Numbered from the stretch's first letter, positions 10,573 through 57,625 are shown. The stretch is DNA of 64,000 nucleotides from an uncultured Bacteroidota bacterium (GCA_963735755.1 CAVTME010000005.1:49585-113584); one strand, 5' to 3'. The notes: generated by a model not told the origin, from the sequence alone. Numbers and translations: made by a program.

Positions 10573-10598
10573 CCTTCATACCGATTCCGTTATTTTAC

Positions 10599-10726: not shown

Positions 10727-11587
10727 ATGAGACAGTTAAAGATCACGAAATCCATTACCAACAGGGAAAGTGCTTCATTAGACAAGTATTTACAGGAGAT
10801 TGGTAAGGAAGAGTTGATCACTGTTGAGGAAGAGGTAGAATTGGCTCAACGGATCAAAAAGGGCGACCGAGCTGCCCTTGAGAAACTCACACGAGCAAAT
10901 CTGAGGTTTGTCGTTTCTGTGGCAAAACAGTACCAGAACCAGGGATTAAGCCTTCCCGACCTAATCAATGAAGGCAACCTGGGACTGATCAAAGCAGCAG
11001 AGAAATTTGACGAAACAAGGGGTTTTAAATTCATCTCCTACGCCGTTTGGTGGATCAGGCAATCGATCCTTCAGGCACTGGCAGAACAATCGAGGATCGT
11101 ACGCCTTCCATTGAACCAGGTTGGTTCACTAAACAAGATTAACAAGGCGTTTTCCAAGTTTGAGCAGGAGTATGAACGGACACCCACACCAGAGGAGCTT
11201 GCTGAGGCACTAGACCTTCCCAAGGAGAAAGTATCGGACACATTGCGTGTTTCGGGAAGGCATGTATCCGTTGATGCACCCTTTGTCGATGGTGAAGACA
11301 ACAGTCTGCTGGATGTGCTGGTGAATAATGATTCACCCAATGCAGACAACACACTTATTAATGAATCACTCTCCAGGGAAGTGGACCGTGCACTGGCCAC
11401 ACTCACCGAACGGGAAAGGGATATCATTAAGCTTTTCTTCGGAATAAGCACCCAGGAAATGACACTGGAAGAGATTGGCGAAAAATTCGGACTGACACGC
11501 GAACGCGTTCGTCAGATCAAGGAAAAGGCCATACGCAGGCTCCGCCACACTTCCAGGAGTAAATTACTTAAAACCTACCTGGGATAA
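10727..11587 (+). CDS. rpoD: Primary sigma-70 factor, Bacteroidota short type (286 aa)
   Basis: Regions 2-4 are recognisable: [58 protein letters not shown]... and [28 protein letters not shown]. Intact. Confidence 0.95.
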
Positions 11588-11612
11588 GAAAACATAGTCT
11601 AAAATCGTAAAT

Positions 11613-11647
11613 AAAGGGGCGCTCTGAAAAAAGGGTGCCCCTTTTTT
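11613..11647 (+). terminator. Terminator hairpin after rpoD
   Basis: AAAGGGGC-(16-nt loop)-GCCCCTTTTTT read directly. Confidence 0.65.
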
Positions 11648-11662
11648 AGGTTAAAGGGGAAA

Positions 11663-13020: not shown

Positions 13021-13021
13021 C

Positions 13022-25012: not shown

Positions 25013-26010
25013 TTATGAATCCAGACTGTTGTAATAGTTAAATACCCTTATCAATCCGGCATCATCATTGATCTTGATCTTTTCCGACCTGATGAACCTT
25101 TCAATCTCCTCCGCATGGTCAGCGAATAGCTTACGGATGCTCTTTTTCCGCTTTTTCAGAAGGACCACCTCGGCGCCCTCCGATTGCTGGTAATAGAGCT
25201 GCCGGTACTGAACAAAGGCATCAGCCCCTCCCGCCCAGTTGTAGGTAACTGGTCCGCTGCCAGCCTTGATCTTTACATCATGACGCATCAATAATTTGCA
25301 TCCGCCTTCATTGAGGACCTGGAAGTATGCTGATCCCAGATAAGGCCGGCGGCTGCTTCTTTTCACATACAAACCATGCAGGAATTTCATGTTGCTGATG
25401 GAGATACGCTTCACATTGAAGGGGGCCGAAATGGCAAAAGTATCATTGTTGTAGACCATCTCAAATTCCTGGGCATAAAGGTTGTATCTGAAAAGTCCGT
25501 TGATGTTGAAGAATTCATTGATCTCTGCCTCATATTCTCCCTTCAGTTTCTCGAGATAGTCACGCAGGTTATTTTCCAGCATTTCAGTGATTCCTGGAAT
25601 GCCTTCAAAATCACTGTTGGAAATCCGCAGGTCATAGTCCGGATTTTTTGTCCGGATCAATTCCTTCCATCTCAAGTGCAAGGCCTGCAGCCTCAAAATC
25701 AGGATCAGAAAGTTTCTTGATGAGGGCATCGATCTTGCTTATTTTTGCCTGGTACTCGCGCACTTTTGCCTTTTCCTTCTTTTCCTGTGCGATCTGATTG
25801 GCGATTTCACTTTTCATTTCCAGGGTCCCGTACATCCAGGTTTCAGACAGATAGGGAGAACCTGCTATCTCATAGTTGGCTTCGGCCCCTCCGCTGAGCA
25901 AAAATGAACCGCTGAAAGATCCACCAATATTGACGTTCTGCACCTGGGAGTTGGTGTAGTGACAACAGGCCCAGACCAAGTAACAACCATGAAAACTGCT
26001 GCTTACGCAT
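25013..26010 (-). pseudogene. Hypothetical secreted protein, 2 frame changes (T6 run on the plus strand at 25644-25649, and about 25975)
   Basis: ATG 26010 gives MRKQQFSWLLLGLGLL (signal). Then ...NVNIGGSFSGSFLLSGGAEANYEIAGSPYLSETWMYGTLEMK...(coiled-coil)...DPDK, then NPDYDLRISNSDFEGIPG...FRYNLYAQEFEMVY.... ORFs 25632..25979 and 25013..25729 are fragments. Confidence 0.5.
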
Positions 26011-26110
26011 ACATCGGACTTATTAGCTGTAAGAGTTTTCAGGCTGCAAATTTAATAATTGTTATTCCAGATATCCAGAGGGATGGAAAAAATGCAATAT
26101 ATTAGTAGAG

Positions 26111-27646
26111 ATGAACATTTTAACGCTATTGATCAGGGATTGTCATTTTCTGAAGGTGATTGTAGTAAGCATCGCTGCTTTTTCTGCTTATCTCCCTCCG
26201 GCATAAAGGGCCAGAATCTGGATGGAAAGATTGTTATACCCGAGAGCTTTCCGGTGGCCTACATCCATATCACACAGATTGAAATTACAGGGAACGCCAG
26301 AACAAAGGAGAAGATCATCACCAGAGAGTTGGATTTCAGCCTGGGAGACAGCCTGGCACTTTGACGATGCCCTGGCAAAAACAGCCATGTTCAGCCAGAA
26401 GCGTATTAGCCGGAACGATTCCAGTGAGGTGGTCAAGACGAATGAAATACAGCCGGGAGAATATCATCAACACCCAGCTTTTCCTGTCGGTTGACCTGCG
26501 TCTTGAGCAGGCAGAGGGTGATGACTATACATTGAAGATTGATGTGAAGGAACGTTGGTACTTCTGGGTGTTTCCTGTGGTGAAGCTGGATCATCCCAAC
26601 TTCAACGACTGGCTCCAGGATCCGGATCTGGACCAGGTGAATATGGGACTGTTTACAAGCCATAACAACCTGTGGGGATTGAGCCACCAGGCATCAGCGG
26701 TGGCATATTGGGGAAGTTCACAAAGTTTGGTCTGGGTTACAAAATACCCTGGATTGGTAGTGGCCAGAAGATCGGGATGGTCATTGGGGGCGCTTATAGG
26801 AATTCGGCAGTGGTGGAGTATGCATCCGTGGACAATGAGAGGCAAATGATCTATGACAAGGGCAGTGTAAAGGAGATTTTTTCGACACAACACCTTTACC
26901 TTCAGGCCCGGGCTTTACAATTATGGAAAAATAAGGATGGATCGCCGGAAATGTCAGCCTTTCAGATTCCTTATTCAGCCTGACCCAGGAGTATTTGCCG
27001 GACAATAAGAGTACAGTTAGTTTCGTCAACTTCTATGCGGAATATGCCTATGATTCCCGTAACAACCGGGCTTATCCGCTCAATGGGAATTACTTAAAGG
27101 GTTTTGTGGACAAGCGCGGGTATGGGGATTATTTCCCACGATGTGGACTATTTCTATTATGGTGCTGATCTTCACTTCTACCAGCAAATCAGTGACAGAT
27201 GGTATGCGGCTGAGATGACAAAACTGGTGAGTTCATCCAGTGAGAATATACCTTATTATTTCCAGCAGAGCCTTACCTCAAGCGACGATTTCATCCGTGG
27301 ATTTGACTATTATGCCCTCAGTGGCGACGCAGATGTATTATTTCAGGAGCAACCTGAAATACAATGTGATCAAGCCAGGGATTATGGAGGCCACGGAAGG
27401 AGAAGAACAAGGATAGCAAATTCAGGAATGTGCCCTATGCCTTCTATATGAACCTGCTTGCAGATGTGGCCTATGTGGTGGATGAATTTCCATGGAGATA
27501 TGAATCCATACAACAACAAAATGCTTTATTCCTGGGGGCTCGGCGTGGATTTCATCAGCTACTATGACCTGGTCCTGAGGTTTGAATATGCCTTTACCAA
27601 CATCGGCACCCACGGTTTCTTTTTTGGATTCGGGATGCCTATTTAA
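26111..27646 (+). pseudogene. BamA/Omp85-family outer-membrane protein (POTRA + surface-antigen barrel), about 10 frame changes
   Basis: MNILTLLIRDCHFLKVIVVSIAAFSAYLPPA (signal). POTRA ITQIEITGNARTKEKIITRELDFSLGDSLA. ...RENIINTQLFLSVDLRLEQAEGDDYTLKIDVKERWYF. Barrel strands in several frames (FYAEYAYDSRNNRAYPLNGNYLKGF; YYFRSNLKYNVIKPG). Ends WGLGVDFISYYDLVLRFEYAFTNIGTHGFFFGFGMPI. Confidence 0.7.
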
Positions 27647-27770
27647 GCAAAGGGAATACCGATCCTGATCTCCTGTTTGTATTGTTTCTAAAAAAGGATT
27701 GGTTTCTGTACAGACAACCTTTATCTCTTATCTTTGGTCCCTAATAAATTCCGGAACTGAAAACAGATAT

Positions 27771-30314
27771 ATGATGAAGCTTCCCGCCAAGAAAGCCAGT
27801 CTGCTCTGGCTCTTTTCTCTTACATCAGCATGGCTCCTTTCCCAGGTACCCGAGGGAGGTACCATGCTCAACTCCGAAACAGGGACCACCTACCAGAAGG
27901 TTGGTTCTTGTACGGTCACACAGGTGGATGTTGAAGGCCAGGATTTTACAAAGGCCATCAGGGTCCAGGTGCGCGACAATGTTTCCAATGCCTGGGATGC
28001 CCAGCTGAAATTCCCTGCTGTAGCGGGAGTGTCGGAAACAGATGTGGTACTTGTGGCCTTTTTTGCCCGGACCATCGAGTCGGAAGAGGAGACAGGGGAA
28101 GGATTTCTAACAGTAGTAATTGAGCACAATGTGTCTTACGCAAAGGAGATATCTCATAAAATATCCATTGGTAGTGAGTGGAGGGAGTACTACGCCCCGG
28201 CTGAAGTTGCACATGATCTGGCAACATCCGAGGTGAGCTACCTGTTCCATATGGGCTACCCCAACCAGGTGGTGGAGGTGGCCGATGTCCGTTTCCTCAA
28301 TTATTTTTCTACCCTTGATCTGGAAGATCTGCCCGAGACGGAAATCACCTATGTGGGCCGTGCCCCGGATGCCCCCTGGCGCGCTCCTGCAGAAGAGCGC
28401 ATCGCTCAGTACAGGAAAGGATTGGCAGAAATTACCATTTACGATGCAGAGGGAATGCCGGTGAACGCAGCAGATGTGAAAATTCAGATGCAGCGTCACC
28501 AGTTTGGATTCGGAACAGCTGTTACGGCAAGCAACATTGTCAACAATAAAGTCTACAGGGATACCCTGTTCGATATTTTCAATGAGGTGGTATTTGAGAA
28601 CGATTTGAAGTGGCCACCCTTTGAAAACAGTTCAACCCACGGTCGCATTCTTAGCGCCCTGGATACCCTGGATGCCCATAAGGTTCCTGTCAGGGGGCAC
28701 AACATCATCTGGCCGGCATACAAATATATGCCTGATTTTATGGAGGATCTTTCCGGCGACCCTGAGCAAATGAGATTGGAGATTGATAAACGCTTCGATG
28801 AAGTGACAGCATTCACCAAAGGCCGTTTAAACGATTGGGATGTGATGAATGAACCCTATACGGAGCATGATGTTCAGGACATACTTGGAGATGAGGTGAT
28901 GGCCGACTGGTTCCGACGAACCCGGCGCAATGATCCTGGAGTGAAGCTTTACATCAATGACTATTATATCCTCAGCGGAGGCGGCATTAATAAGACAAAG
29001 CAGGATTATTACTACGACCTGATTGAGTATATTGATGAACGGGGTGGCCGGATTGACGGCATCGGAATGCAGGGTCATTTCAGCACAGACCTGACCTCCA
29101 TTACCAGGGTCTATGATATTCTGGACAGGTTTGCGGAGCTGGGCAAGGATATTAAAATCACGGAACATGATATTGCCATCACCCAGCGGGATGTGCAGGC
29201 TGACTATACCCGTGATTTTATGACCATTGTATTCAGCCACCCTTCGGTAAAGTCCATTCTCGCGTGGGGATTCTGGGCTGGTGCCCACTGGAAACCCGAT
29301 GCTGCGTATTTTGATAAAGATTGGAATATCCTGCCACACGGGGAAGTTTGGCGGGATCTGATCAAGAAGCAGTGGTGGACCCCGGCCATGGATACGGTTT
29401 CAGATGAAAACGGAAAGTACAGTTTTGAGGGATTTCTGGGAAGCTATTCCTACACCGTTCAGGTTGGCGATACCCTGAGGAAAGGTTTCTTTACCCTGGA
29501 GCATTCCAGGCAGAGTGGTGTAACAAATTCCATCATCATCTCCCTGGATGGTTCCATTCCTGAATCTGTTCAGGTCACCCCGGATCAGGAGGGCTTTATT
29601 TGTGAAGGTGAAGAGATGACCCTTCGTGCACCGGAGGAAGAGGGATTTGCCTATGCCTGGACCCTGGAGGGGCTGCCCCTTCCGGATACAACAGCTTCCA
29701 TCGTAGCAGTGGATTCAGGATCTTACCGGGTGACGGTGTCAAAACTTGGCGTCTCACTCACATCTGAGCCTTACTTCCTGGAGGTAATCGCCATTCCTTC
29801 CACACCGGTCTTAGTGGCTGATGGAGAACTGGAAGTTTGTGCCGGTGAAGCTGTCACCATCTCCCTGGATGGAATTCCGGATATTCAATCCGATTATGAA
29901 TGGTATCTTGACGGTGAGCGGGTACAATGGGGCGGTTCTTCCTATGATGCTGGTAAAACCGGGGAATACACCCTGAAAACTACCGACATCGGATGCGCCT
30001 CGATCTCGGAACCTGTATCTGTAAGCATTCTTCCCGAATCAGATTCCCGCTGCACCCTTGGAATGGAGGTGGATGAATCCAGCTCACGCATCTTTCCCAA
30101 CCCATGTAAGGGTTTAGTGCAGGTCGAACTGACAGGAGGGACAGGTACCGGACATGAGGTGGCCTTATACGATGTTATGGGACGACGGAGACAATCCGTA
30201 CTGACTGAACCGGGTACGAAACAGTTGACACTTTCTGTACCCGATCCTGGAATCTATATGGTGAAGATCATCCAGGGAACACATGTACAGACCCATAAAC
30301 TGGTTTCGGAGTAG
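27771..30314 (+). CDS. GH10 endo-beta-1,4-xylanase-type enzyme with N-terminal CBM-like domain, Ig-like repeats and T9SS C-terminal domain
   Basis: Start at MMKLPAKKASLLWLFSLTSAWLLSQ. GH10 hallmarks WDVMNEP (acid/base) and ITEHDI (nucleophile). C-terminal RIFPNPCKGLVQVEL...GIYMVKI sorting domain. Confidence 0.8.
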   Translation: MMKLPAKKASLLWLFSLTSAWLLSQVPEGGTMLNSETGTTYQKVGSCTVTQVDVEGQDFTKAIRVQVRDNVSNAWDAQLKFPAVAGVSETDVVLVAFFARTIESEEETGEGFLTVVIEHNVSYAKEISHKISIGSEWREYYAPAEVAHDLATSEVSYLFHMGYPNQVVEVADVRFLNYFSTLDLEDLPETEITYVGRAPDAPWRAPAEERIAQYRKGLAEITIYDAEGMPVNAADVKIQMQRHQFGFGTAVTASNIVNNKVYRDTLFDIFNEVVFENDLKWPPFENSSTHGRILSALDTLDAHKVPVRGHNIIWPAYKYMPDFMEDLSGDPEQMRLEIDKRFDEVTAFTKGRLNDWDVMNEPYTEHDVQDILGDEVMADWFRRTRRNDPGVKLYINDYYILSGGGINKTKQDYYYDLIEYIDERGGRIDGIGMQGHFSTDLTSITRVYDILDRFAELGKDIKITEHDIAITQRDVQADYTRDFMTIVFSHPSVKSILAWGFWAGAHWKPDAAYFDKDWNILPHGEVWRDLIKKQWWTPAMDTVSDENGKYSFEGFLGSYSYTVQVGDTLRKGFFTLEHSRQSGVTNSIIISLDGSIPESVQVTPDQEGFICEGEEMTLRAPEEEGFAYAWTLEGLPLPDTTASIVAVDSGSYRVTVSKLGVSLTSEPYFLEVIAIPSTPVLVADGELEVCAGEAVTISLDGIPDIQSDYEWYLDGERVQWGGSSYDAGKTGEYTLKTTDIGCASISEPVSVSILPESDSRCTLGMEVDESSSRIFPNPCKGLVQVELTGGTGTGHEVALYDVMGRRRQSVLTEPGTKQLTLSVPDPGIYMVKIIQGTHVQTHKLVSE

Positions 30315-30316: not shown

Positions 30317-31018
30317 CTATTTTAGCGGCAGCAGCCTGATATTTTTCCAGCGTACCTGGTAGGGTGTGGCATCTTCACCCACATCGTGTACCTGGAGACC
30401 GATGATCCCGCTAAGGGATAGCGCATCCCTGAAATCGGAAACCACCACTCCGTTTACAATGGTTTTGATGGCATCACCTTTGCATTCAATCCGGTAGGTA
30501 TTCCACTGCTTGGGTTTGAACGCTTTTCCCACTTTGGAATCTCTCTCCGGCCACCAGGGTGTCATGGCCCTGCGGGCTTCGTCATACACACCTCCTGCGC
30601 CACCACCGGCTGCGATCTCCACCTGGTAACCGTAAACCCTGTCTGCAGGAATGGTATTGGATTGGTACTCTCCCTCATTATTTTTGAACCAGAACATCAG
30701 TTCATGGGGTGCGATCTGGCTTCTGAACTGCACACCTGAGTTCAGCTCGTTGTCCTCCAGAAGAACTTCAAATTCAAGAATAAAATCAGCATACTCCTTC
30801 TCAGTGCAAAGAAAGGAGTTGGGACTGTTGGGGACAGCCTGTCCCACGATACAGCCATCTTCCACGCGGTATTTGGCATGGCCGCTGTGGATGGACCATC
30901 CTTCAAGGGTCTCTCCGTCAAATAGATTGATCCATCCTTCTTCCTGTACAGGAGAAGTGCAATACACCGGAAGTAAGATGATGGCCAGGGCCAGCGAAGC
31001 AAAATAATGGGCTTTCAT
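30317..31018 (-). CDS. DUF1080 (3-keto-disaccharide hydrolase-like) domain protein, secreted
   Basis: GWINLFDGETLEGWS..., LQVHDVG..., ending VRWKNIRLLPL. Classic DUF1080 pattern with a signal peptide. Confidence 0.75.
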   Translation of the reverse strand: MKAHYFASLALAIILLPVYCTSPVQEEGWINLFDGETLEGWSIHSGHAKYRVEDGCIVGQAVPNSPNSFLCTEKEYADFILEFEVLLEDNELNSGVQFRSQIAPHELMFWFKNNEGEYQSNTIPADRVYGYQVEIAAGGGAGGVYDEARRAMTPWWPERDSKVGKAFKPKQWNTYRIECKGDAIKTIVNGVVVSDFRDALSLSGIIGLQVHDVGEDATPYQVRWKNIRLLPLK

Positions 31019-32260: not shown

Positions 32261-33731
32261 ATGAATCGACGTGATTTTTACAAGAAAAGCAGCTTACTGG
32301 GTCTCGGACTGGTGGCAGGCTCTTCAGTCCTGGGCAGGGAGCCCTCCATTTCCTCAGATCCTGCCTTTTATAAGGAGGCTGCCAAAAATCTGCCAGTCAG
32401 GCAATTTGATGTGGTTGTAGCCGGCGCAGGAACAGCCGGAGTGATTGCAGCCATTGCCTCTGCCAGGCAGGGGGCCAGGACCATTCTTGTGGAAGCCAAG
32501 GGATATCCGGGAGGTGTTGCTGTGGAAGGCGGGACGGCGCTGCACAGTTTTTTTAACCTGTGGAAGGCCTTCCCCGGGGTTGAAAAAAGGCAGCTGGTAC
32601 GGGGAATTCCTGCAGAGATGATCGACCGTCTCACAGCCAGGGGAGGAGCCACCGGTTATGCCGAGATGATGAAGCACTATGAGTACGATTCGGTATGTAC
32701 GGCCATTGATACAGAAAAATATAAACTGAATGCCTTTGAGATGCTGGACGAAGCGGGGGTGTAATATATGTGTAAACACCTTCTGGCGGGGGTGATCAAG
32801 GAGAAAAAGGAAGTGAAGGGTGTGATTCTGGAAAGCCGCTCTGGACGCGAGGCAATCTTTGCCAAATCTTTTGTGGACTGCACGGGATATGGCGACCTGG
32901 CAGCTCATGCAGGTGCGGAATTTACACGAGCCCAATGATTATGCAGTGGTGAACAGCATGGGCCTGGCCAATGTGGATATCGAGCGCTACTTTCATTTCC
33001 TGAATTCCTCCGATTCGGTGGGACAACTGGCTTATGGTCCCCGTGACGGGGTACCCGGACAAATCGTCCGCCTGGGATCGGAAGGTTCCAATGGATACCC
33101 GGATGGATTTGTGGAAGGTGCGCATGCCATCGGAATGTCATCCATTTCCACTACGGTGCACGACGATTACCTGATGTTCATCAAGTTGAACCTGAAGCTT
33201 TCCCAGAGTCCGACCGACAGGGATACAGTAGCCAAAGCGGAGCTGGAGCTGCGGAAGCGGATGCAAACCGGGGTGGAACTGTTTAATAAATATATTCCTG
33301 GTTTTGAAAGGGCATTTATCTCACGCACCAGTCCCAACCTGGTGATCCGGAGGGGCAGACTGATTACCTGCGATTATGACATTAGCCATGAGGATGTGAT
33401 CAACGGGGAACATTTTGAGGACGATGTTTTTGTATACGGTTTCATGACATGGCTCCCGCGCTTGCAGATTAAGGATGGCGGCAGTTACGGGATACCCTAC
33501 AGGGCCTTGCGTGTAAAGGGCATCAGCAACCTTTTTGTTTCGGGGATGATGATCACCTCCGATCACCGGGCCCACATGTCTACCCGCAACACGGTCAGCT
33601 GCATGGGTCAGGGACAGGCCAGCGGCACAGCTGCAGCCCTCTGCGCCCTGAATGATTATGACAGCAGGGGATTGCCCTACCAGAATTTAAGGGATGAGCT
33701 GGAGAAGAACGGAGTCTATTTCGAATCATAA
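32261..33731 (+). pseudogene. Tat-signal FAD-dependent oxidoreductase (FAD_oxidored-type), in-frame TAA at 32762-32764 plus one frameshift near 32918
   Basis: MNRRDFYKKSSLLGLGLVAGSSVLG (twin-arginine). DVVVAGAGTAGVIAAIASARQG dinucleotide fold. Homology continues after the TAA in the same frame (LLAGVIKEKKEVKGVILESRSGREAIFAKSFVDCTGYGDLAA), then shifts to ORF 32859..33731. Confidence 0.75.
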
Positions 33732-48021: not shown

Positions 48022-48723
48022 ATGATTGAATTGAAAGGCAGAAATGCCCTGATTACCGGATCCAGCCGGGGTATAGGCCAGCAACTTGCGCAGGGACTGG
48101 CAGAACTTGGATGCAATATTATTGTTCATGGACGAAGCAGCGAAAGCTGTACCAATACATTAGCGCTGCTTGAGGAATATCCGATACATACCTATGGCGT
48201 GTATGGTGAACTATCCCATGAGGATCAGGTAAATCAGTTGATCAGGCAGGTACAGGACCTGCATATCAATGTGGATATTTTGTATAATAATGCAGCGCTC
48301 ATGACCCCTTTTTATGACGACTACTGGAAGCACAGTTGGGAGGAGTGGATGCTCACATTCAAGGTAAATGTGTTTGCCATGTACAGCCTGTGTGGTGCGT
48401 TTATTCCAGCCATGATTGAAAATGGTTTCGGAAGGGTCATCAATCTTACTTCAGGTATTAAAGATATGCCCGAGCTCGCCCCCTATGGTGCATCCAAATG
48501 GGCGGTGGATAAACTGACTGATGATGTGGCTGTTAAACTCAAAAACACAGGGGTGAGAATCAACACCCTCGACCCGGGCTGGCTGCGAACCGACCTGGGT
48601 GGCGAAAATGCCGAGCACCCTGTGGAAGCTGTTCTGCCGGGCGCCCTGGCTCCTGCACTCATAGAGGATGACGGGCCCAACGGGGAGTTTTTCTCAGCCA
48701 TCGATCACAAGCTGGATTTGTAA
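48022..48723 (+). CDS. SDR-family oxidoreductase (no signal peptide)
   Basis: ALITGSSRGIGQ, NNAA, YGASKWAV (YxxxK). Intact, 233 aa. Confidence 0.8.
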   Translation: MIELKGRNALITGSSRGIGQQLAQGLAELGCNIIVHGRSSESCTNTLALLEEYPIHTYGVYGELSHEDQVNQLIRQVQDLHINVDILYNNAALMTPFYDDYWKHSWEEWMLTFKVNVFAMYSLCGAFIPAMIENGFGRVINLTSGIKDMPELAPYGASKWAVDKLTDDVAVKLKNTGVRINTLDPGWLRTDLGGENAEHPVEAVLPGALAPALIEDDGPNGEFFSAIDHKLDL

Positions 48724-48738
48724 TGGTGTAAGCATTCA

Positions 48739-49782
48739 ATGAAAAGAAGAAATTTTATTCAGCAATCCGCCGTTGCCGGGGCACTCCTAACACCCGGATC
48801 AGCTACATTGTTGGCAAACAGCAAGGCCAGTGACAATTCTGACGTGCCAGGTAAAGTGAAAAATGCCATGCTCAGCATGCAAAGGGCCTCCTGGGAACAG
48901 GGGATTGCTGCGCAGGCAATCCTGGAGATGGGTGATGCCGATATGGCCTATCTGATGGCCAAAGAAGCAGCCCTGCGGCAAACAAAGGAGGGGCGGCTCT
49001 CTGTTTTATACACTGACAATGGCGTGACCGATCCTGCTGCTTCAGGCGAAGTTGTGTTTCGAATGGCAGAAAAGAGCGGAGATCCGGAACTTGCAGAAGC
49101 ACATCAGAAGATGGTAGCTTACCTGCTCAAGGAAGCCCCCAGGACAGACGATGGTACACTTCACCACACCCTGAATTCTCCCGAGATTTGGATTGACTCC
49201 ATCTATATGGCACCTCCCTATTTATGCGTGGCGGGGCATCCGAAGGAGTGCATCCGGCAGATTGAAGGTATTCGGAAGCTTCTATATGATCCGGATAAGA
49301 ATCTGTATTCTCATCAATGGCACGATGGAAATAAAGCATTGATCAGGAAGGACTATTGGGGTGTGGGGAATGGCTGGGCAATGGCCAGCATGGCGCGTGT
49401 GATTGATGATCTACCTGCTGAAATGAAAGCTGAGAAAAATCTTCTGGAGGATTATGCAAGGAAAAACATCGATGGGTGTTTGCCCTTTCTGCGTACAGAC
49501 GGACTGTTTCACGATGTGATTGATGATGGTGATTCCTTTATAGAAACCAACCTGTCACAAATGATGGCCTATGCCATATTCAGGGGTATTAAATCAGGAT
49601 GGTTGTCAGATGATTACCTTACTGTTGCCCTCAGGATGAGACAGGCAGCACATTCCATGGTGGATGAGCATGGATTTGTCCAGGGGGTATGCGGGGCACC
49701 CTTTTTTAACAGCCCGGGCAGGGCCACCGAAGGTCAGGCCTTCTTCCTGTTGATGGAAGCGGCCCATGCAAGGCTTTCTTAA
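48739..49782 (+). CDS. Tat-signal glycosyl hydrolase family 88/105 (unsaturated glucuronyl/rhamnogalacturonyl hydrolase-like)
   Basis: MKRRNFIQQSAVAGALLTPGSATLLA (twin-arginine). WIDSIYMAPPYL and YWGVGNGWAM motifs typical of GH88/GH105. Confidence 0.7.
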   Translation: MKRRNFIQQSAVAGALLTPGSATLLANSKASDNSDVPGKVKNAMLSMQRASWEQGIAAQAILEMGDADMAYLMAKEAALRQTKEGRLSVLYTDNGVTDPAASGEVVFRMAEKSGDPELAEAHQKMVAYLLKEAPRTDDGTLHHTLNSPEIWIDSIYMAPPYLCVAGHPKECIRQIEGIRKLLYDPDKNLYSHQWHDGNKALIRKDYWGVGNGWAMASMARVIDDLPAEMKAEKNLLEDYARKNIDGCLPFLRTDGLFHDVIDDGDSFIETNLSQMMAYAIFRGIKSGWLSDDYLTVALRMRQAAHSMVDEHGFVQGVCGAPFFNSPGRATEGQAFFLLMEAAHARLS

Positions 49783-49837
49783 TCTTCAGAGGATTTTTGT
49801 ATCTTCCTAAAGGAAAAAACATAAATCTCCCGAAGTC

Positions 49838-51205
49838 ATGAACAACAGAAGAGATTTATTAAAAGCATTGGCCCTGCTTCCTCTTGCGGCCTGTACCCGG
49901 ACTGTCGAATAACAGTGCCATTCCGGATCCCAGTCAAACCAGTCCCTCTCCCGTGGGCTGGCAACCGGACGGCAAGGAGCTCAACCTGCAGAAGGTTAAA
50001 ATAAAAAAGGTAAAGGCCATTGCTACTGCTCCCTATGGGATTGAACTGGTGATCGTCAAAGTGGAAACAGACCAGCCCGGACTTTATGGCATCGGATGTG
50101 CGACCTTCAGGCAAAGGGCCCATGCAGTTGCATCTGCCATAGATGATTACCTGGATGATTTTTGCAGGGACAAGGATGTGAGCAATATTGAGGATATCTG
50201 GCAGACGGCCTACGTAAGTTCCTACTGGCGGAACGGACCGGTTCTGAACAATGCCCTCAGCGGATTGGACCAGGCCCTTTGGGATATTAAAGGCAAGATG
50301 GCCGGTATGCCGGTTTACCAGTTGCTGGGAGGAAAGACACGTTTTGCAGTGGATACCTATACCCATGCTTCCGGTCCCACTCCGGAGGCAGTCATGGATG
50401 CAGTGCGAAAGGTACAGGGAGCAGGGATTCAGGCATATCCGTATCCAGCTGGGGGGATATGGTTCCACCCATTTGACAGATGAACCGGATTACAAGCAAT
50501 ATGGCTTCGGGCATCCCGATGATAATACCCTGGATCCGCAGGCATATAAAAGAGGGGTGGTCAGGATGTTCAAGATGGCCCGGAAAAAGTTTGGGGATGA
50601 AATTGAATTCCTCCATGATATGCATGAGCGCATCGAGCCCATGGATGCCATCGATTTGATTAAAAAGCTGGAAGAGTACAGGCCTTTCTTCATTGAAGAT
50701 CCCTTTTCACCGGAGAATATGGGCTGGTTTAAGATGTTGCGCCAGCAAACTGCTGTCCCCATTGCCATGGGTGAATTGTTTAACAATCCCCATGAATGGG
50801 TTGAGCCCATGAGCCAGAGAATGTATGATTTTATTCGCATCCATATTTCCCAGATAGGGGGGATCACGCCTGCCATGAAGGTGGCCAGGCTGGGAGAGTG
50901 GTTCAATGTAAGAACAGCCTGGCATGGTCCGGGAGATACTTCCCCTGTGGGTCATGCGGCCAATGCACATATCGATCTGGCTGTCTGGAATTTTGGAATT
51001 CAGGAAGGGAAGCATTTCAATGAACTCACCCATGAAATATTCCCGGGAACACCCACCATTGAGAATGGCTATATGTTTGTGAATGAAGCACCCGGACTGG
51101 GAATAGACATTGACGAGGAGAAGGCAAAAAAATATCCCCTGCCTCAGGTTTAATTACAACTGGACCCAGGTCAGAAAGGCCGATGGTACGCCGGTCAGAC
51201 CCTGA
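49838..51205 (+). pseudogene. Tat-signal enolase-superfamily enzyme of the D-mannonate dehydratase (ManD/RspA) subgroup, 3 frame changes
   Basis: MNNRRDLLKALALLPLAA (twin-arginine). Then KIKKVKAIATAPYGIELVIVKVETDQPGLYGIGCATF...ALWDIKGKMAGMPVYQLLGG, ...EQGFRHIRIQLGG..., LHDMHERI..., FIEDP..., the metal/acid-base region, and ends FNYNWTQVRKADGTPVRP in a third frame (stop 51203-51205). Confidence 0.75.
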
Positions 51206-51244
51206 TGTTAGAACATAAGTAGATCAAATTAAAATAATAGGAAC

Positions 51245-52268
51245 ATGAAAAACAGAAGAGATTTTATTAAAACATCTGCAGTTCTGGGGGTTTTCGGCAT
51301 GTTGCATCAATGGGCCTCTGCCATTCCGTTGACGGATACACACGGAAGCATTCTGCCTCAGCGCCGGCTGATCAGGAATGGCGAGAAGGTCACCGCATTC
51401 GGCCTGGGAGGCTGGCATGTGGGGGATGCCGGTAGTCCGGCTAAATCAGAAAAAATGGTTGAGATGTCCATGGACATGGGCGTAAGGTTTTATGATACAG
51501 CGCGGGTCTACCAGAATGGTGGATCGGAGGAGTTACTGGGAAGTATTTGGTACCCAAATACCGGGACAAGGTATTCCTGATGACCAAGAGCCATGCAAGG
51601 ACCGGAGAGGATGCAAAAAAGCACCTGGAGCTTTCACTGAAGGCACTGAAAACGGAGCAGGTTGACCTGTGGCAGATACATACCATCTATACCCCGGAAG
51701 ATGTGGATCAGCGCATCAAAGACGGGGTACTGGATGTATTCCTGGAGGCAAAAGAGAAAGGAAGACCCGCTACATTGGTTTTACAGGTCACAGAAGTCCG
51801 GTTACCATGCTGTATTTTCTGAAACGACTGGATGAGCTTGGGCGTGGAACTGGATACCTGCCAGATGCCATTGAATGTGCTTGATCCCAGCTTTGAATCC
51901 TTCCAGAAAAATGTACTGCCGGTGCTTCTTGAGAAAGAGTACGGAGTCATTGCCATGAAAACCATGAGTGGTGGCAGCATGATGGGAGAACGCATCGATA
52001 CCACACCCAAAGAGATCACCACAGATATGATCCCCGATATGGTCAAGGAGACCGGGATCTCCCCGGCAGAACTGCATCAATATGTATATACATTGCCTGT
52101 TTCATACCCTGGTAAGTGGAAGCGACAACATGGAACAGCTGGAGCATAACATCGGGGTACTTCAGAACTTCAAGAAACTGAGCGAGTCAGACATGCAAAG
52201 GCTGGTGAAAACTTACCAAACCCTATGCCGGACTGATCGTTGAGAATTACAAGCGGGTTTTGAGCTGA
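51245..52268 (+). pseudogene. Tat-signal aldo/keto reductase, about 5 frame changes
   Basis: MKNRRDFIKTSAVLGVFGMLHQWASA (twin-arginine). AKR motifs GLGGWHVG, FYDTARVYQNGGSEELLG, DLWQIH, TRYIGFTGH, GVIAMKTMSGG. The C-terminus AGLIVENYKRVLS ends at 52268. Fragments are ORFs 51245.., 51547.., 51669.., 51832.. plus unlisted frames. Confidence 0.75.
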
Positions 52269-52313: not shown

Positions 52314-53420
52314 ATGAAAAAAGGGATTTTTTCCTTGGTGTGGCTTTTTGCATTGATCGCATTAAACAGTGCACAGGATAAGCAGGCAGACGGTTCTGCC
52401 CTGATCGATCCAGGGCTTAACGAAATACAGAACCAATTTCTTAATAAACAGGCAGAGGCGCTGCTTACCCAGGCCAATGGGGTATTTGTCAATCACCCGC
52501 CCAACTGGCCTGAACCTCCTTCCAGGAAAAGTGCACTGTTATTGCTTGATGGAGTCTTGCACGATGTGTATGCTCCACAGAGGCCTCCTGTTCAGCATTT
52601 TTTTAAGACGCGAATCAAGGAGGCCATTGATGACATTGAACAGAGCGTAATCACTGATGGTGCCCGCATATGGAAACTGTATAACCATGGATTCCTGGTT
52701 CGGACCAGATCTGTTACCATAGGATTTGACCTGGTACGTGGAGAATCGGTGGGAGTTGAAGATTTTGCCATTGCACATGATGATATGAAAAGGCTTATTG
52801 ATCTCTGCGATGTGCTGTTTATCAGCCATTACCATGCTGACCATGCGGAAACATGGGTAGCACAGACTTTTATCGACCAGGGAAAGCCTGTCATCGCTCC
52901 GCCGGATGTCTGGAAGGATGAGCAAATCTATTCGTCCATCACGCATCTGGAAAGAAGGGCTCACAGCGAACAGACCCTTCCTGTCCAGGGTGGTGAGCGG
53001 CAATTGAAGGTGGTGGTGTATCCAGGGCACCAGAGCACCCAAATTGTAAACAACGTAACGCTGGTGATCACGCCTGAAGGGCTTTCATTTTCTCAAATGG
53101 GAGATCAGTCCAATGACGATGACTTTGAATGGATCGATGAGGTTGGCAAACACCACGAGGTGGATGTCCTTATGCCCAACTGCTGGACCACAGACATCGT
53201 CAGGGTGGCCAAAGGATTTAATCCGGCGGTGATTATCACCGGACATGAAAATGAGATGGGACATACCATCGATCATCGGGAACCCTACTGGCTCACTTAC
53301 CAGAGGCGAGAAGGATCAGACAGATTTGGCGGAAGCCGGGATGTTGGTTATACATATCCCCTGGTTCTGATGACCTGGGGGGAGTCATATCATTATAGCA
53401 GGGCGGAATATCGCAGATAA
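52314..53420 (+). CDS. Secreted MBL-fold metallo-hydrolase
   Basis: Signal peptide MKKGIFSLVWLFALIALNSAQ. HYHADH (HxHxDH) motif. Intact, 368 aa. Confidence 0.65.
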   Translation: MKKGIFSLVWLFALIALNSAQDKQADGSALIDPGLNEIQNQFLNKQAEALLTQANGVFVNHPPNWPEPPSRKSALLLLDGVLHDVYAPQRPPVQHFFKTRIKEAIDDIEQSVITDGARIWKLYNHGFLVRTRSVTIGFDLVRGESVGVEDFAIAHDDMKRLIDLCDVLFISHYHADHAETWVAQTFIDQGKPVIAPPDVWKDEQIYSSITHLERRAHSEQTLPVQGGERQLKVVVYPGHQSTQIVNNVTLVITPEGLSFSQMGDQSNDDDFEWIDEVGKHHEVDVLMPNCWTTDIVRVAKGFNPAVIITGHENEMGHTIDHREPYWLTYQRREGSDRFGGSRDVGYTYPLVLMTWGESYHYSRAEYRR

Positions 53421-54556: not shown

Positions 54557-57500
54557 CTATTGTAGCTTGATTAAGGTTCCGGACTCCAGGATAGACTCTC
54601 CTTTTATCCTGTAAATTAGCACCTTATTGAGTCCGGAATGGATGTTGCCCAGATTGCATACGATCCTGTTGAAGCCCTGTTCGACCTGTCCCTCATACGC
54701 AGTCCCGAGCATTCGGCCGTAAAGATCATATATTTCGATTTGTATATGCTGTGCTTTGCCCGGTTGGATGCTGAAGTTGACCTCGCTTATGAAAGGGTTT
54801 GGATAAACCTGTACTTCATTTTCGGCAAAGGCATAGGTGGCCTCAGCGGTGGTCCATACATTTTCAGCCCCGGGGGTACCCCCGGCATGGACTGAGGAAC
54901 TCCAGGAGCCCGGTTCAGAATTGTCCAGGTCCGGGGAAATCAGTGAAAGGGAAGGACCTGAACCATCGGCCATGGTGGGCCATGGTGGCGTATTCTGATA
55001 AGAGACCTGATCCACCAGGTTTTTTTGTGGGTCAAACAGTCTGATGCTTTCTTCCATGTGATTAAAACCAAAGTTAAAATCACCAGCATAATCTGTTACC
55101 TGCGGAAAGAACTGAAGCAAATCGGAATTTTCCTGGCAAAGCACCAGGTAGCCATCCGGTTGAATGACAGTATTCTTGGGTATTTTAAATGAATTACCCT
55201 CCTGGGAGTCTTTGAGCACCCATGCGGACAGGTCCACTGGAAAATCAAAGCCATTGTATAATTCCACCCAGTCGCCTGTGTTTATGGATGGAGCAGGGTT
55301 GTAGCATACCTCGTTGATCACAATGTTGTTGATGGCCCCCGGGTCCTCAATAAGATTCATCCGTATGGTCAGGTCCCCGGTCAGGCTCACCTCGATGGTC
55401 GGTTTTGATCTGTCACCGTCCACGCCACTCCATCCTGCAAATTTGTAGCCTGGTAGGGGAAGAGCAGAAAGCCTGATGGGTACACCGGCCGGGTAGCTGC
55501 CTGTCCAGCCCGAATTTTCAATCTGCACCGAATTTAAGCCCACTTTACCAGCTCCTTCCCTATTAAAATTCACCGTGATTGTGTGCCAGGCGGAAAGACC
55601 AAAATAGTCCTTCAGCTGGATCTTCAGGTACTCGGGCCGGAGACTGGAAAAGGCAGATATCTCTGAAATATTGGATTCCCACTGGTCTATGCTGGTGAGC
55701 GAAGCGCCGTAAGAACCCCACAGGGAGATATGTTTCTCCATCTCGGAGCGCAACTGATCCTTGAATTGCAGAATTTCATTCTCCATGTTCGAAGGACGAA
55801 ACATCGTATTCATCAGGTCCGATATTTTATTTAGAAAGCGGTATTTGAACCCTTCATTTTCAAGCAGGTTTCTGAAGATGATGGTGGTATAATCCGGATT
55901 GGGCCAGCTTGTGCCACCCACCAGGGTAGATTGGGATATGGTGTTGTGGGATGTGCGAATCAGGCAATTATCCAGATCATACATGATCCACCGCCACTTG
56001 CTTTCGGGATTGTTGGACCTCCAGCACTTGTTATTGTTCCCTGGCCAGTCTTCATTGGCTGCAAACACGTTGATGGCATAATAGTCGATGATGTTCTGAA
56101 TGTCAATCATTGATTCGACTTGCGCATACGCATCTGCCTGGGAAAGGTCATACAAAGCGATGTAGTTTTCCATGTACAAATAATCGTCATCGTCTCCCTC
56201 AATAAGCAGGGGAAAGGATCTCCGCCAGTACCTGCTTATTATATCCACGCTGTCCTTATCCACCCAGGAATGACTGGAGAGGTAATCTTCGTTCAATTTT
56301 GAGCGGATGTTGTGTATTCCCCAGTATTCTCCATTCAGGTAGACAATGCAGTACCTGAAATGCTGTCTTTCCACATCCAGTTTTTTTGCCAGTTGAGAGA
56401 GGAGCGGATCCCTGATCAGGGTCTGCTGCCAATCCTGCCCGGCGTTTCGCAATACAAATGATTTATACTGATCAACCTGTGAGTCAGGAAAGAGCTGATA
56501 GTTCAACGCATCCACTCCATACTTGTCCCGGATCATCACCGCCAGGGACCTTCGCTGGTTGGCACGGCTTCCCCAACCAAAAATTTTTATACCGGCATCG
56601 ATGGAGAAGGCCTGGCTAAAATCGGTCTCATACATTTCGATGTGGGCCGGACGTTCCCAGTCGTTCCAGTAATTTGCAATTCTGTTTCCCTCGTCCGCGT
56701 TATTTCCCGGGGTGTAGATACCAGTTTCTCCATCCCATAGATTTGCAGGGGGCGTGGAAATACAAACCACAGGCAACTGGTGCTCACCCATGATGTAAGT
56801 CCCTGTAAAAACAGGACTTATAAATACTCCGTTTTTATAGGCGCGGGCTTTGATGACAAGGGATTCACTGATTAAAACCGGATCGTTGAACAGGAAAGAA
56901 CCTGGGGACGGGTCGTCTCCATCGAGGGTATAGCGGATCTCTGCCCCGGCAGTTTGAACGGAGAAGCTTAGAGCCATGGCGGAGCCATACAATCCCGGTG
57001 GGAGTGAAGGGGTCACCGCATCTGAAAATGTCGAAAACTGTTGCCCTGAATTCGAACTCAGTGGGGTTGGGGTAACAAAAGTGGTCCACGAATCTGCTCC
57101 ATCGGAGCGGCGTCCCAGGGAAAAATCAGCGATGATATTACTCACATCCCTGTGATCAATGATGCTTCCCCCGGGATTGCTTAAGAAAATACTTTCTCCG
57201 GATTGTTTCAGCTTAAAATTGCTGTGCAGCCAGGCCCCAGGCGGGGTATTTATCTTTCTGTCTTTGCCAGAAACAAAAACCAGTACATGGCCGCCCGAAG
57301 GGATCGATATATCGGGGAAGGTCCATTTCTGCAGGTTGAGTGAATCGTCCGAAAGACCATATCCGGAAAGGTTCATGTCCGAAGGGGTGGGATTATATAT
57401 TTCTACCCAACCCGGGTATTCCCCATCATACACGGATTTACCCAGATCGTTGTACCATTCAGTGCAGTTTTCAACGGGACAGTTGTAGGGGATGATGTCG

Positions 57501-57625
57501 TATTCATCCGGCAGGCCTGTGATATTGGAAGTCACCACTTCATTGATTACTGGTTCTGTTTGAGCAGCACCGCTCAAATGAGGGTACAAAGCCAGGATAA
57601 GAAGCAATGCCGGGATCCTGTTCAT
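54557..57625 (-). CDS. CotH-family protein with two lamin-tail (LTD) domains and T9SS C-terminal sorting domain
   Basis: LTD-like INEVVTSN...GWVEIYNPTPSDMNLSGYGLSDD and INEVCYNPAPSINTGDWVELYNGFDFPVDLSAWVLKD. CotH core ...SFVLRNAGQDW...YLNGEYWGIHNIRSKLNEDYL. C-terminal VQVYPNPFISEVNFSI... (T9SS). Intact, 1022 aa. Confidence 0.75.
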   Translation of the reverse strand: MNRIPALLLILALYPHLSGAAQTEPVINEVVTSNITGLPDEYDIIPYNCPVENCTEWYNDLGKSVYDGEYPGWVEIYNPTPSDMNLSGYGLSDDSLNLQKWTFPDISIPSGGHVLVFVSGKDRKINTPPGAWLHSNFKLKQSGESIFLSNPGGSIIDHRDVSNIIADFSLGRRSDGADSWTTFVTPTPLSSNSGQQFSTFSDAVTPSLPPGLYGSAMALSFSVQTAGAEIRYTLDGDDPSPGSFLFNDPVLISESLVIKARAYKNGVFISPVFTGTYIMGEHQLPVVCISTPPANLWDGETGIYTPGNNADEGNRIANYWNDWERPAHIEMYETDFSQAFSIDAGIKIFGWGSRANQRRSLAVMIRDKYGVDALNYQLFPDSQVDQYKSFVLRNAGQDWQQTLIRDPLLSQLAKKLDVERQHFRYCIVYLNGEYWGIHNIRSKLNEDYLSSHSWVDKDSVDIISRYWRRSFPLLIEGDDDDYLYMENYIALYDLSQADAYAQVESMIDIQNIIDYYAINVFAANEDWPGNNNKCWRSNNPESKWRWIMYDLDNCLIRTSHNTISQSTLVGGTSWPNPDYTTIIFRNLLENEGFKYRFLNKISDLMNTMFRPSNMENEILQFKDQLRSEMEKHISLWGSYGASLTSIDQWESNISEISAFSSLRPEYLKIQLKDYFGLSAWHTITVNFNREGAGKVGLNSVQIENSGWTGSYPAGVPIRLSALPLPGYKFAGWSGVDGDRSKPTIEVSLTGDLTIRMNLIEDPGAINNIVINEVCYNPAPSINTGDWVELYNGFDFPVDLSAWVLKDSQEGNSFKIPKNTVIQPDGYLVLCQENSDLLQFFPQVTDYAGDFNFGFNHMEESIRLFDPQKNLVDQVSYQNTPPWPTMADGSGPSLSLISPDLDNSEPGSWSSSVHAGGTPGAENVWTTAEATYAFAENEVQVYPNPFISEVNFSIQPGKAQHIQIEIYDLYGRMLGTAYEGQVEQGFNRIVCNLGNIHSGLNKVLIYRIKGESILESGTLIKLQ

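Follow-up and report, generated by a model that had tools for sequence, protein, structure and literature searches.

Predicted twin-arginine leaders on a ManD-subgroup dehydratase and an aldo/keto reductase encoded side by side in an uncultured Bacteroidota bacterium

The window (the whole stretch of DNA analysed here, 64,000 nucleotides from an uncultured Bacteroidota bacterium) contains three consecutive, co-directional genes that encode a GH88/GH105-like hydrolase (GH), a ManD-like dehydratase of the enolase superfamily (ManD) and an aldo/keto reductase (AKR), separated by gaps of 55 and 39 nt (Table 1). The N-termini MKRRNFIQQSAVAG, MNNRRDLLKALALLPLAAC and MKNRRDFIKTSAVLG are present at 48739, 49838 and 51245, respectively, and carry the twin-arginine (RR) motifs KRRNFIQ, NRRDLLK and NRRDFIK, which are similar to S/T-R-R-x-F-L-K. 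For the 368-aa protein encoded directly downstream, profile and PDB searches returned no above-threshold Pfam match and no PDB relative, the match to a metallo-beta-lactamase fold being weak (Lactamase_B_2 E=0.018). A 74% identical ortholog directly follows AKR in locus L083, the nearest relative of the window. Because it is conserved in L083 only, we did not include this protein in the module discussed below.

Table 1. Genes and leader features in and around the three-gene stretch, with positions counted from the first nucleotide of the window.
Feature	Coordinates	Strand	Basis
SDR oxidoreductase without signal peptide, 16 nt 5' of GH	48022..48723	+	Pfam adh_short 1.1e-41
GH88/GH105-like (alpha/alpha)6 hydrolase, 347 aa, intact	48739..49782	+	Pfam Glyco_hydro_88 2e-40
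GH leader, ~28 codons, Tat-type, MKRRNFIQQSAVAGALLTPGSATLLANS	48739..48822	+	TIGR01409 and homologs
ManD-subgroup enolase-superfamily dehydratase, 454 aa without 3 inserted bases	49838..51205	+	Pfam MR_MLE_N/C, NCBIfam ManD
ManD leader, twin-arginine motif then lipobox, MNNRRDLLKALALLPLAA-C	49838..49894	+	homolog conservation
Aldo/keto reductase (AKR), 340 aa after 5 indel corrections	51245..52268	+	Pfam Aldo_ket_red 7.7e-39
AKR leader MKNRRDFIKTSAVLGVFGMLHQWASA, A-x-A-type site at end	51245..51322	+	TIGR01409, homologs
368-aa protein, Sec-type signal, HxHxDH motif, directly 3' of AKR	52314..53420	+	Pfam Lactamase_B_2 E=0.018
FAD-dependent oxidoreductase (PF12831), interrupted frame, borderline Tat-like leader MNRRDFYKK	32261..33731	+	TIGR01409 16.6

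The closest solved structures to GH are 3K11 (Bacteroides) and YteR (GH105), and the similarity is distant (E 1e-13 with YteR, 1e-13 to 1e-17 across solved members). The catalytic Asp143 of YteR, equivalent to D149 of UGL, aligns with the D of the GH sequence WIDSIYM, and YteR Asp88 also aligns with an Asp. GH is a putative unsaturated glycuronyl hydrolase, which would cleave delta-4,5-unsaturated uronyl glycosides. It resembles YteR, UGL and 3K11 in its Glyco_hydro_88 domain, but it differs from them in a conserved Tat leader and a subfamily motif, AMLSMQRASWEQG. The best non-self homolog is only 65% identical, compared to 93% for ManD and 90% for AKR. GH appears to belong to its own Tat-leader subfamily, the members of which occur alone in varied genomic contexts.

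The capping and barrel domains of the ManD-like protein were identified by Pfam (MR_MLE_N 1.7e-18 and MR_MLE_C 2.9e-48). The best NCBIfam model is ManD, at 387 bits, below the equivalog cut-off of 550, and the model for the D-galactonate dehydratase family gives 372 bits (cut-off 430). The protein therefore seems to be a subgroup relative and not ManD itself, and its specificity may differ from mannonate/gluconate because of the sub-threshold ManD score. The closest PDB entries are those from Salmonella enterica (3TW9/3TWA/3TWB), Dickeya (4IHC) and Pantoea (3T6C); these, and 2QJJ from Novosphingobium, share its domain architecture. The alignment with 3TW9 scores ~465 bits over residues 49-454, with the metal-ligand motifs D-x-H, E-D-P and G-E-L and the R...Y motif conserved. 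Fourteen diverse members all have R201, Y207, D260, H262, E286 and E312 (P0001 numbering), and 3TW9 has identical residues at the aligned positions; by the roles assigned in the ManD literature, they comprise the three carboxylate Mg2+ ligands, the His of D-x-H and the Arg/Tyr base. The substrates of the closest characterised relatives are D-gluconate and D-mannonate. Homologs of AKR and ManD with the full corrected length (340 and 454 aa) are 90% and 93% identical, respectively.

In AKR, the Aldo_ket_red match spans residues 53-323 and profile positions 3-289 of 291, and the Asp-Tyr-Lys-His tetrad (D84, Y89, K115, H146) is invariant in 11 diverse homologs and in 106 homologs overall. The best PDB match scores 83 bits and L-galactose dehydrogenase ~52 bits, so that AKR is only distantly related to characterised AKRs. 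At the level of sequence the folds of the proteins are unambiguous, and the family assignments made in the original prediction hold: GH as GH105-like (Glyco_hydro_88 and the aligned catalytic Asp), ManD as a member of its subgroup (Pfam, NCBIfam and conserved catalytic residues), and AKR as an aldo/keto reductase (domain match and intact tetrad).

A relaxed search for Tat motifs, begun from each ATG codon on either strand of the window, returned only six matches, four of which are real gene starts: those of GH, ManD, AKR and the FAD oxidoreductase at 32261. When the N-termini alone were scored with TIGR01409 (cut-off 16.7), GH (23.9) and AKR (18.5) were above the cut-off, ManD was below it (14.8) and the FAD oxidoreductase was just under it (16.6). 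Scores with the Pfam TAT_signal model (PF10518, cut-off 22.7 bits) were all below the cut-off (GH 15.3, ManD 17.0, AKR 21.2), and the FAD oxidoreductase leader had no match to this model. For the latter protein, which had been predicted to carry the same type of leader, an RR motif at a real gene start is confirmed, but its identity as a Tat signal is borderline.

Conservation among homologs provides the strongest support for the leaders: for each of the three proteins, over 100 homologs retain the RR pair, whereas the remainder of the leader varies. The RR leader is present in 105 of 108 full-length GH homologs (the other three are truncated start calls), in 109 of 120 ManD homologs (the remaining 11 are truncated start calls or a fragment) and in 107 of 120 AKR homologs (the others have truncated starts). 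It was found in every readable ManD ortholog across 82 genome loci from Bacteroidota, Verrucomicrobiota, Planctomycetota and Latescibacterota, and R4 and R5 are invariant in the 14 diverse ManD members, in contrast to the following ~40 residues, which vary. The start codons of orthologs lie 5' of the RR motifs. The h-regions are uncharged. W-A-S-A forms the end of the AKR leader and L-A-A-C that of the ManD leader, and the lipobox Cys is present in 93 of 120 ManD homologs. The core of the GH leader is rich in Gly/Ala/Ser/Thr, and that of ManD is fairly hydrophobic. These patterns support the original prediction that GH, ManD and AKR carry RR leaders, and their interpretation as genuine, conserved Tat-type signals.

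Within the clade sharing at least 76% identity, 11 of the 12 informative loci have ManD and AKR next to each other, in either order; the two are also adjacent in L023 and L025. In a locus from Verrucomicrobiota (L017) they are convergent and 1.7 kb apart. Starting from AKR, we found ManD in 20 of 27 metagenome loci (those that extend 1.5 kb or more to either side), mostly in the same orientation and 13-76 nt apart, again in both orders. Sulfatases occur near the pair in 11 of 46 loci, and nothing else is conserved around it in this set. The pair has no conserved transporter, regulator or third enzyme beside it, which leaves its substrate unconstrained. The conserved functional unit is ManD and AKR alone, as a widespread two-gene operon.

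The search patterns were matched by more than 590 genome loci. In Cytophagales, SusC/D loci contain the Tat-leader ManD next to a PQQ-cytochrome c dehydrogenase of the periplasm; this dehydrogenase is present in 15 loci, directly beside ManD in most. Other genes found in the company of the wider clade encode additional enolase paralogs (109 of 113 with an RR leader), Tat-leader Gfo/Idh/MocA and xylose-isomerase-like proteins, and an RraA-like aldolase with a Sec signal. A 324-aa protein without a Pfam match or PDB relative accompanies ManD in 19 loci.

The frames of ManD and AKR are interrupted in this assembly. Where the original prediction gave three and about five frame changes, the exact counts are three and five: single-base insertions in ManD at 49910, 50406 and 51146, and in AKR deletions at 51542 and 51762 and insertions at 51840, 52105 and 52212. 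These eight indels fall within 2.4 kb, compared to none in ~8.7 kb of flanking genes, as might be expected if both genes were pseudogenes and the arrangement had no current function here. We consider this highly improbable, given that the corrected frames (454 and 340 aa) contain no internal stop and that dN/dS relative to L083 is 0.043 for ManD and 0.061 for AKR, below the 0.076 to 0.159 of the intact flanking genes. The corrected genes are under purifying selection. Homopolymer errors were rejected as the source of the indels, the contexts being mostly not long homopolymers. Assembly error is still favoured because other stretches of the window (1-14000, 26000-27500 and 32261-33731) are similarly fragmented, indicating uneven assembly quality. 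The frameshifts are probably assembly errors, and real inactivation in this strain is unlikely. It is also possible to read the leaders as something other than Tat signals, in which case the proteins would be cytoplasmic with mis-called starts, or would use Sec; ManD would then follow the Sec and lipoprotein pathway with RR only as a positively charged n-region. Internal starts are indeed called in ~10% of homologs, the scores of ManD (TIGR01409) and of all three proteins (TAT_signal) are below cut-off, and the h-region (ALALLPLAA) and lipobox of ManD are reminiscent of classical lipoprotein signals for Sec. However, sequence 5' of the internal Met is conserved at the protein level, with RR invariant, down to 60% identity and across four phyla, and RR is invariant with or without a lipobox. 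Conservation extends to the full motif S/N-R-R-x-[FL]-[LI]-K, beyond mere positive charge, and GH and distant ManD members have weakly hydrophobic h-regions rich in Gly/Ser/Ala, as Tat substrates do. A cytoplasmic location or a route other than Tat is thus unlikely; for ManD, the fairly hydrophobic core and the lipobox leave some probability of Sec/Lol routing.

The original prediction further suggested that the two following enzymes dehydrate and reduce the product of GH cleavage, so that an exported GH88/105 would free an unsaturated uronate in the periplasm for ManD and AKR. The close, co-directional spacing of the three genes and their shared RR leaders are compatible with this, GH retains the GH105 catalytic Asp, and the aldehyde of 4-deoxy-5-keto-uronate could in principle be reduced by an AKR. 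The genomic context argues otherwise. No GH88/105 homolog was found within 5-10 kb in any of 84 ManD-anchored or window-related loci or 80 AKR-anchored loci (0 of 164), and neither of the two GH-homolog contexts examined contains ManD or AKR. L083 has the same backbone (fasciclin ... ManD-AKR-unk36x) but, in place of the SDR and GH of the window, carries DUF362/CBM-like/URO-D-like genes between flanking genes that the two loci share. The SDR gene was not found at this position in L083 or in any ManD/AKR locus compared, and SDR and GH together are the variable cassette of the locus. The lower identity of the best GH homolog (65%) relative to those of ManD and AKR also sets GH apart. The chemistry is likewise unsuitable. 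A released unsaturated uronate rearranges to 4-deoxy-5-keto-uronate which, numbered from the carboxylate, is already a 2-keto-3-deoxy acid, the type of product that ManD makes. There is thus nothing for ManD to remove, as the 2-H/3-OH pair needed for dehydration is missing. We ruled out a single GH-ManD-AKR pathway on synteny and chemistry; it is largely refuted by the synteny and, overall, very unlikely. GH is best viewed as a chance neighbour of the ManD-AKR pair.

Enolase-superfamily sugar-acid dehydratases and AKRs are textbook cytoplasmic enzymes. The characterised ManD members are cytoplasmic and leaderless and are found with cytoplasmic uronate-pathway genes, whereas the window protein is extended at its N-terminus by 50 residues (twin-arginine motif, lipobox and linker) and its operon partner is a predicted exported AKR. 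AKRs are paired with enolase-superfamily dehydratases in bacterial oxidative routes for L-fucose/L-galactose, and in the fungal D-galacturonate route (GAAA reductase and L-galactonate dehydratase); in these sugar-acid routes, redox chemistry at the C1 carbonyl is followed by 2,3-dehydration of the aldonate. They involve the same two superfamilies as the window pair, but run in the cytoplasm with free NAD(P)(H). In the periplasm, which lacks a pool of NAD(P)H, an AKR reaction of the ordinary kind would stall. By analogy, we assume that AKR holds a bound, non-exchanging cofactor. A precedent is provided by sugar oxidoreductases of Bacteroides that are exported through Tat with NAD(P) loaded (PMC8121099; bioRxiv 10.1101/2024.03.25.586180). 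Tat-exported oxidoreductases with tightly bound NAD(P) include glucose-fructose oxidoreductase (GFOR) of Zymomonas mobilis, BT2158 of Bacteroides thetaiotaomicron and AL3 of Alistipes. Like these, AKR belongs to a nicotinamide-dependent family of sugar enzymes and has a Tat leader in a Gram-negative organism whose periplasm lacks a free cofactor pool, and enzymes of this type occur in Bacteroidota glycan-utilisation contexts, as here. They have the Gfo/Idh/MocA Rossmann fold, in contrast to the TIM-barrel AKR of the window and its enolase-superfamily partner. In the literature searched, we found neither a report of an AKR or enolase-superfamily fold as a Tat substrate nor a study characterising a ManD-type dehydratase or an AKR that is exported by Tat, in agreement with the initial view that the arrangement is uncharacterised.

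We think it fairly likely that the locus encodes three real enzymes with Tat leaders that do not form one pathway, and that ManD and AKR constitute a Tat-exported periplasmic module for sugar-acid dehydration and carbonyl redox chemistry. Actual export, lipidation, the substrate, the direction in which AKR operates and the retention of its cofactor are parts of the model that we infer, and the pair probably works outside the cytoplasm. The ManD-like dehydratase would fold in the cytoplasm as a Mg2+-dependent enolase-superfamily barrel, and AKR would fold there with its nicotinamide cofactor already bound. Both would cross the membrane via Tat in the folded state, after which the dehydratase of this clade may be lipid-anchored through the Cys of the LPLAAC lipobox. 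In the periplasm it would dehydrate a hexonate-type sugar acid to a 2-keto-3-deoxy acid. AKR would catalyse a linked carbonyl redox step, most likely conversion of an aldose/uronate to the aldonate, or would act on the keto-deoxy product, in either case with a bound, non-exchanging cofactor like that of GFOR in Zymomonas and BT2158 in Bacteroides.

A broader and rather doubtful possibility, offered tentatively, is that ManD-type dehydratases with Tat leaders point to an undescribed sugar-acid pathway in the periplasm, widespread among Bacteroidota and PVC bacteria. A sugar or oligosaccharide end imported via SusC/D would be oxidised to an aldonate in the periplasm, by the PQQ-cytochrome c dehydrogenase in aerobic Cytophagales and by the Tat-exported AKR with its non-exchanging cofactor in Bacteroidales. 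The aldonate would then be dehydrated by the exported enolase-superfamily enzyme, and in some loci the product could be cleaved by the Sec-exported RraA-like aldolase. In the AKR version, the bound cofactor would need to be recycled within the pathway through a GFOR-like, redox-neutral dismutation. Were the substrate of the dehydratase an aldonate that still carries a glycan at O-4, the keto-deoxy acid formed could eliminate this glycan, and this, if true, would be a non-hydrolytic route of glycan cleavage.

A large, conserved exported clade, putatively lipid-anchored in some members and embedded in SusC/D loci, would extend the non-hydrolytic, cofactor-carrying periplasmic carbohydrate chemistry that has recently been recognised in Bacteroidota beyond the Gfo/Idh/MocA enzymes. 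It raises the question of how an AKR turns over without a cofactor pool. Cultured, tractable carriers are available in Dyadobacter, Spirosoma, Larkinella, Runella and Pelagicoccus. For annotation, it means that ManD/RspA calls in PULs should not be placed automatically into cytoplasmic uronate catabolism.

The five genes between 48022 and 53420 lie on the plus strand, separated by gaps of 16, 55, 39 and 45 nt in order. Pfam searches bore out the three family names of the original prediction (GH88/105, ManD-like and aldo/keto reductase, hereafter GH, ManD and AKR). The top NCBIfam model for the enolase-superfamily protein is ManD (387 bits vs a cut-off of 550). Its closest solved relatives (3TW9/3TWA/3TWB, 4IHC and 3T6C; ~460 bits over residues 49-454) belong to the ManD subgroup and are low-efficiency D-gluconate dehydratases. 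Catalytic residues are in place: the D-x-H, E-D-P and G-E-L metal-ligand motifs and the R...Y-G motif of ManD are invariant in the alignment, and AKR, although far from any solved structure (top match 83 bits), keeps the D-Y-K-H tetrad. GH is a distant GH105 relative, in which the Asp of WIDSIYM aligns with Asp143 of YteR.

Features of the window, with TIGR01409 scores of leaders scanned by themselves (cut-off 16.7 bits)
Feature	Position	Strand	Signal	TIGR01409 (bits)	Family evidence
GH10 xylanase-family protein	27699-30314	+	T9SS C-terminal sorting domain		
DUF1080 3-keto-disaccharide hydrolase	30317-31018	-			2.7e-42
FAD oxidoreductase, frameshifted	32261-33731	+	borderline Tat leader	16.6	PF12831
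SDR (first of five)	starts 48022	+	no signal peptide		
GH (second), 347 aa	48739-49782	+	RR leader	23.9	Pfam Glyco_hydro_88
ManD (third)	49838-51205	+	RR leader	14.8	Pfam enolase superfamily; NCBIfam ManD
AKR (fourth)	51245-52268	+	RR leader	18.5	Pfam aldo/keto reductase
368-aa protein (fifth)	52314-53420	+	Sec-type signal		metallo-beta-lactamase fold, E=0.018 (weak)
CotH/lamin-tail-domain protein	54557-57625	-	T9SS C-terminal sorting domain		

The frame changes noted earlier in ManD (3) and AKR (about 5) number exactly three and five. Alignment to the locus of the nearest relative (L083, GCA_043797815.1, 83% nucleotide identity) identifies eight single-base indels, three insertions in ManD and two deletions plus three insertions in AKR, and their removal yields uninterrupted frames of 454 and 340 aa. 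Both genes are under purifying selection (dN/dS vs L083 of 0.043 for ManD and 0.061 for AKR, below the 0.076 and 0.159 of intact neighbours), which together with the uninterrupted corrected frames argues against gene decay. Because the frames are restored, dN/dS is low and the window is fragmented elsewhere too, the indels are probably assembly errors. They fall within 49910-52212, most of them outside long homopolymers, and intact genes flank them over ~8.7 kb. Further frameshift-dense stretches occur at 1-14000, 26000-27500 and 32261-33731; strain heterogeneity, uneven coverage and modified bases are possible causes of this patchiness.

The N-termini read MKRRNFIQQSAVAG at 48739 (GH), MNNRRDLLKALALLPLAAC at 49838 (ManD) and MKNRRDFIKTSAVLG at 51245 (AKR), exactly as first reported. 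When every ATG on either strand of the window was scanned with a relaxed Tat motif, six matches emerged, four of them at genuine gene starts, namely the three above and that of the FAD oxidoreductase (32261). For the latter, the predicted motif does sit at the gene start, but the TIGR01409 score is just under the cut-off. The Pfam TAT_signal scores of the GH, ManD and AKR leaders (15.3-21.2) are all under the 22.7 cut-off, and thus the model scores alone are suggestive of Tat leaders, not decisive.

At the level of sequence comparison, conservation settles that the leaders of GH, ManD and AKR are real. The twin-arginine (RR) leader is found in 109/120 of the best ManD homologs (73-93% identical, mostly 440-456 aa), the remaining 11 being start calls at an internal Met or a fragment; for example, homolog P0026 was called without a leader, and the DNA 5' of the called start (locus L002) reads MNNRRDLLKAMALLPLAAC. 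In 107 of 120 AKR homologs RRxF[IL]K precedes a hydrophobic stretch with W-A-S-A at its end, and 105 of 108 full-length GH homologs have the RR leader. A genome scan identified more than 590 loci encoding a ManD relative, and among the best 80 of these plus two loci obtained earlier, which span Bacteroidota, Verrucomicrobiota, Planctomycetota and Latescibacterota, every ManD locus with a readable 5' end encodes an RR leader. In a 14-sequence ManD alignment (72-86% identity) R4 and R5 are invariant and the next ~40 residues variable, as would be expected if a twin-arginine motif were under selection. The leader ends in a lipobox, LPLAAC, in 93/120 homologs of the close clade; distant members have A-x-A-type sites instead. 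After clustering at 50% identity, the 47 full-length representatives closest to the query include about 9 with Tat-type leaders, scattered among leaderless ones. Export of ManD and AKR is a prediction that the sequences support well.

ManD and AKR are operonically coupled. Within the clade of ≥76% identity, 11 of the 12 informative loci have the two genes side by side, AKR lying 3' of ManD in some and 5' in others. Two other loci (L023, L025) likewise have them adjacent, and in Pelagicoccus they are convergent and 1.7 kb apart. Searching from AKR, ManD was found in 20 of the 27 metagenome loci that extend 1.5 kb or more to each side, mostly on the same strand, in both gene orders and with gaps of 13-76 nt. 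The only recurrent neighbours of the pair are sulfatases (11/46 loci). One contig (CAWANQ010000019.1; L010 and L011) has two Tat-ManD copies ~41 kb apart, each beside sulfatases, and just one with AKR. In L002 a 388-aa GH5 (PF00150) gene (8678-9844, minus strand) is located upstream of the pair in divergent orientation, and a ~389-aa family, possibly the same one, with the RR leader RSGRRDFIKK recurs in five pair-containing loci (e.g., L091 2269-3438, minus strand). The 368-aa protein directly 3' of AKR has an HxHxDH motif and is kept at this position in the closest relative only (L083 6571-7665, 74% identity).

The original prediction had the GH88/105 product dehydrated and reduced by exported ManD and AKR. 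Periplasmic ManD and AKR are plausible, but the link to GH is not supported. Across 80 AKR-anchored metagenome loci and 84 loci that are ManD-anchored or related to the window, no GH88/105 homolog occurs within 5-10 kb, and neither ManD nor AKR occurs in the two GH-homolog contexts examined. The nearest non-self homolog of GH is 65% identical, vs 93% for ManD and 90% for AKR. L083 and the window share a backbone of fasciclin 5', then ManD, AKR and the 368-aa protein or its ortholog, and HmuY with a TonB-dependent receptor 3'. The slot between fasciclin and ManD is occupied by different cassettes, SDR and GH in the window (48022-49782) and DUF362, a 169-aa CBM-like protein and a URO-D-like protein in L083 (796-3942). 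The chemistry is also contrary: GH88/105 enzymes release an unsaturated uronate, and the 4-deoxy-5-keto-uronate to which it rearranges is, read from the carboxylate, already a 2-keto-3-deoxy acid, the type of compound that ManD produces rather than consumes.

In a more distant ManD clade (Cytophagales, Sphingobacteriales and Saprospiraceae) AKR is absent and Tat-ManD is encoded in SusC/SusD loci. Gene orders there include SusC-SusD-(U324)-PQQ-cytochrome c dehydrogenase-ManD, SusC-SusD-ManD-LacI-enolase-enolase, and SusC-SusD-sulfatase-ManD-RraA-enolase-RraA-enolase-enolase. The paralogous enolases have RR leaders in 109/113 cases, the RraA-like aldolase has a Sec signal, and other neighbours include Tat-leader Gfo/Idh/MocA proteins and xylose-isomerase-like TIM-barrel proteins. 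A 736-aa quinohemoprotein (PQQ beta-propeller, 3e-184, plus cytochrome c) occurs in 15 loci (L041, L043-L046, L048, L059, L070 and others), in most of which it follows SusC/SusD and adjoins Tat-ManD (at 8001). In L022, L026, L030 and L032, genes for RraA-like/HMG-aldolase-family proteins (1.2e-21) with Sec-type signals alternate with several RR-leader enolase paralogs 3' of SusC/SusD and a sulfatase; predicted export is in itself unusual for an aldolase of this family. U324, a 324-aa Sec-signal family (L049 11547-12521 and 18 other loci) without a match in Pfam or PDB, accompanies Tat-ManD, the PQQ-cytochrome c dehydrogenase or a xylose-isomerase-like TIM-barrel protein with a Tat leader.

Elsewhere in the window, the DUF1080 hydrolase and the nearby FAD oxidoreductase hint that the same glycan-degradation island encodes a 3-keto-glycoside route in the periplasm. 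The T9SS sorting domains of the GH10 and CotH/lamin-tail-domain proteins fit the Bacteroidota origin of the window.

The superfamilies of all three proteins are known, as is Tat export of cofactor-bearing sugar enzymes as a kind of system. NAD(P)-loaded sugar oxidoreductases exported by Tat include GFOR of Zymomonas and BT2158 and AL3 of gut Bacteroidota (PMC8121099; bioRxiv 10.1101/2024.03.25.586180), which AKR resembles as a putative nicotinamide-cofactor sugar oxidoreductase with (predicted) Tat export. A full-text literature search found no description of a Tat-exported, lipobox-bearing ManD-type dehydratase, of a Tat-exported AKR or of a ManD-AKR pairing, in keeping with the earlier suggestion that the arrangement is uncharacterised.

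We propose that ManD and AKR fold in the cytoplasm, AKR with its nicotinamide cofactor bound, and that both would be exported by Tat, ManD then becoming lipid-anchored. In the periplasm ManD would dehydrate a hexonate-like acid to a 2-keto-3-deoxy acid, and AKR would supply or consume a neighbouring carbonyl intermediate via a non-exchanging cofactor. Because a periplasmic PQQ-cytochrome c dehydrogenase accompanies ManD in aerobes, periplasmic sugar oxidation is suggested as the source of the dehydratase substrate, and in Bacteroidales AKR may be the counterpart of this oxidation step. If the 368-aa protein were a lactonase, it would complete the series from aldose to lactone, aldonate and keto-deoxy-acid.
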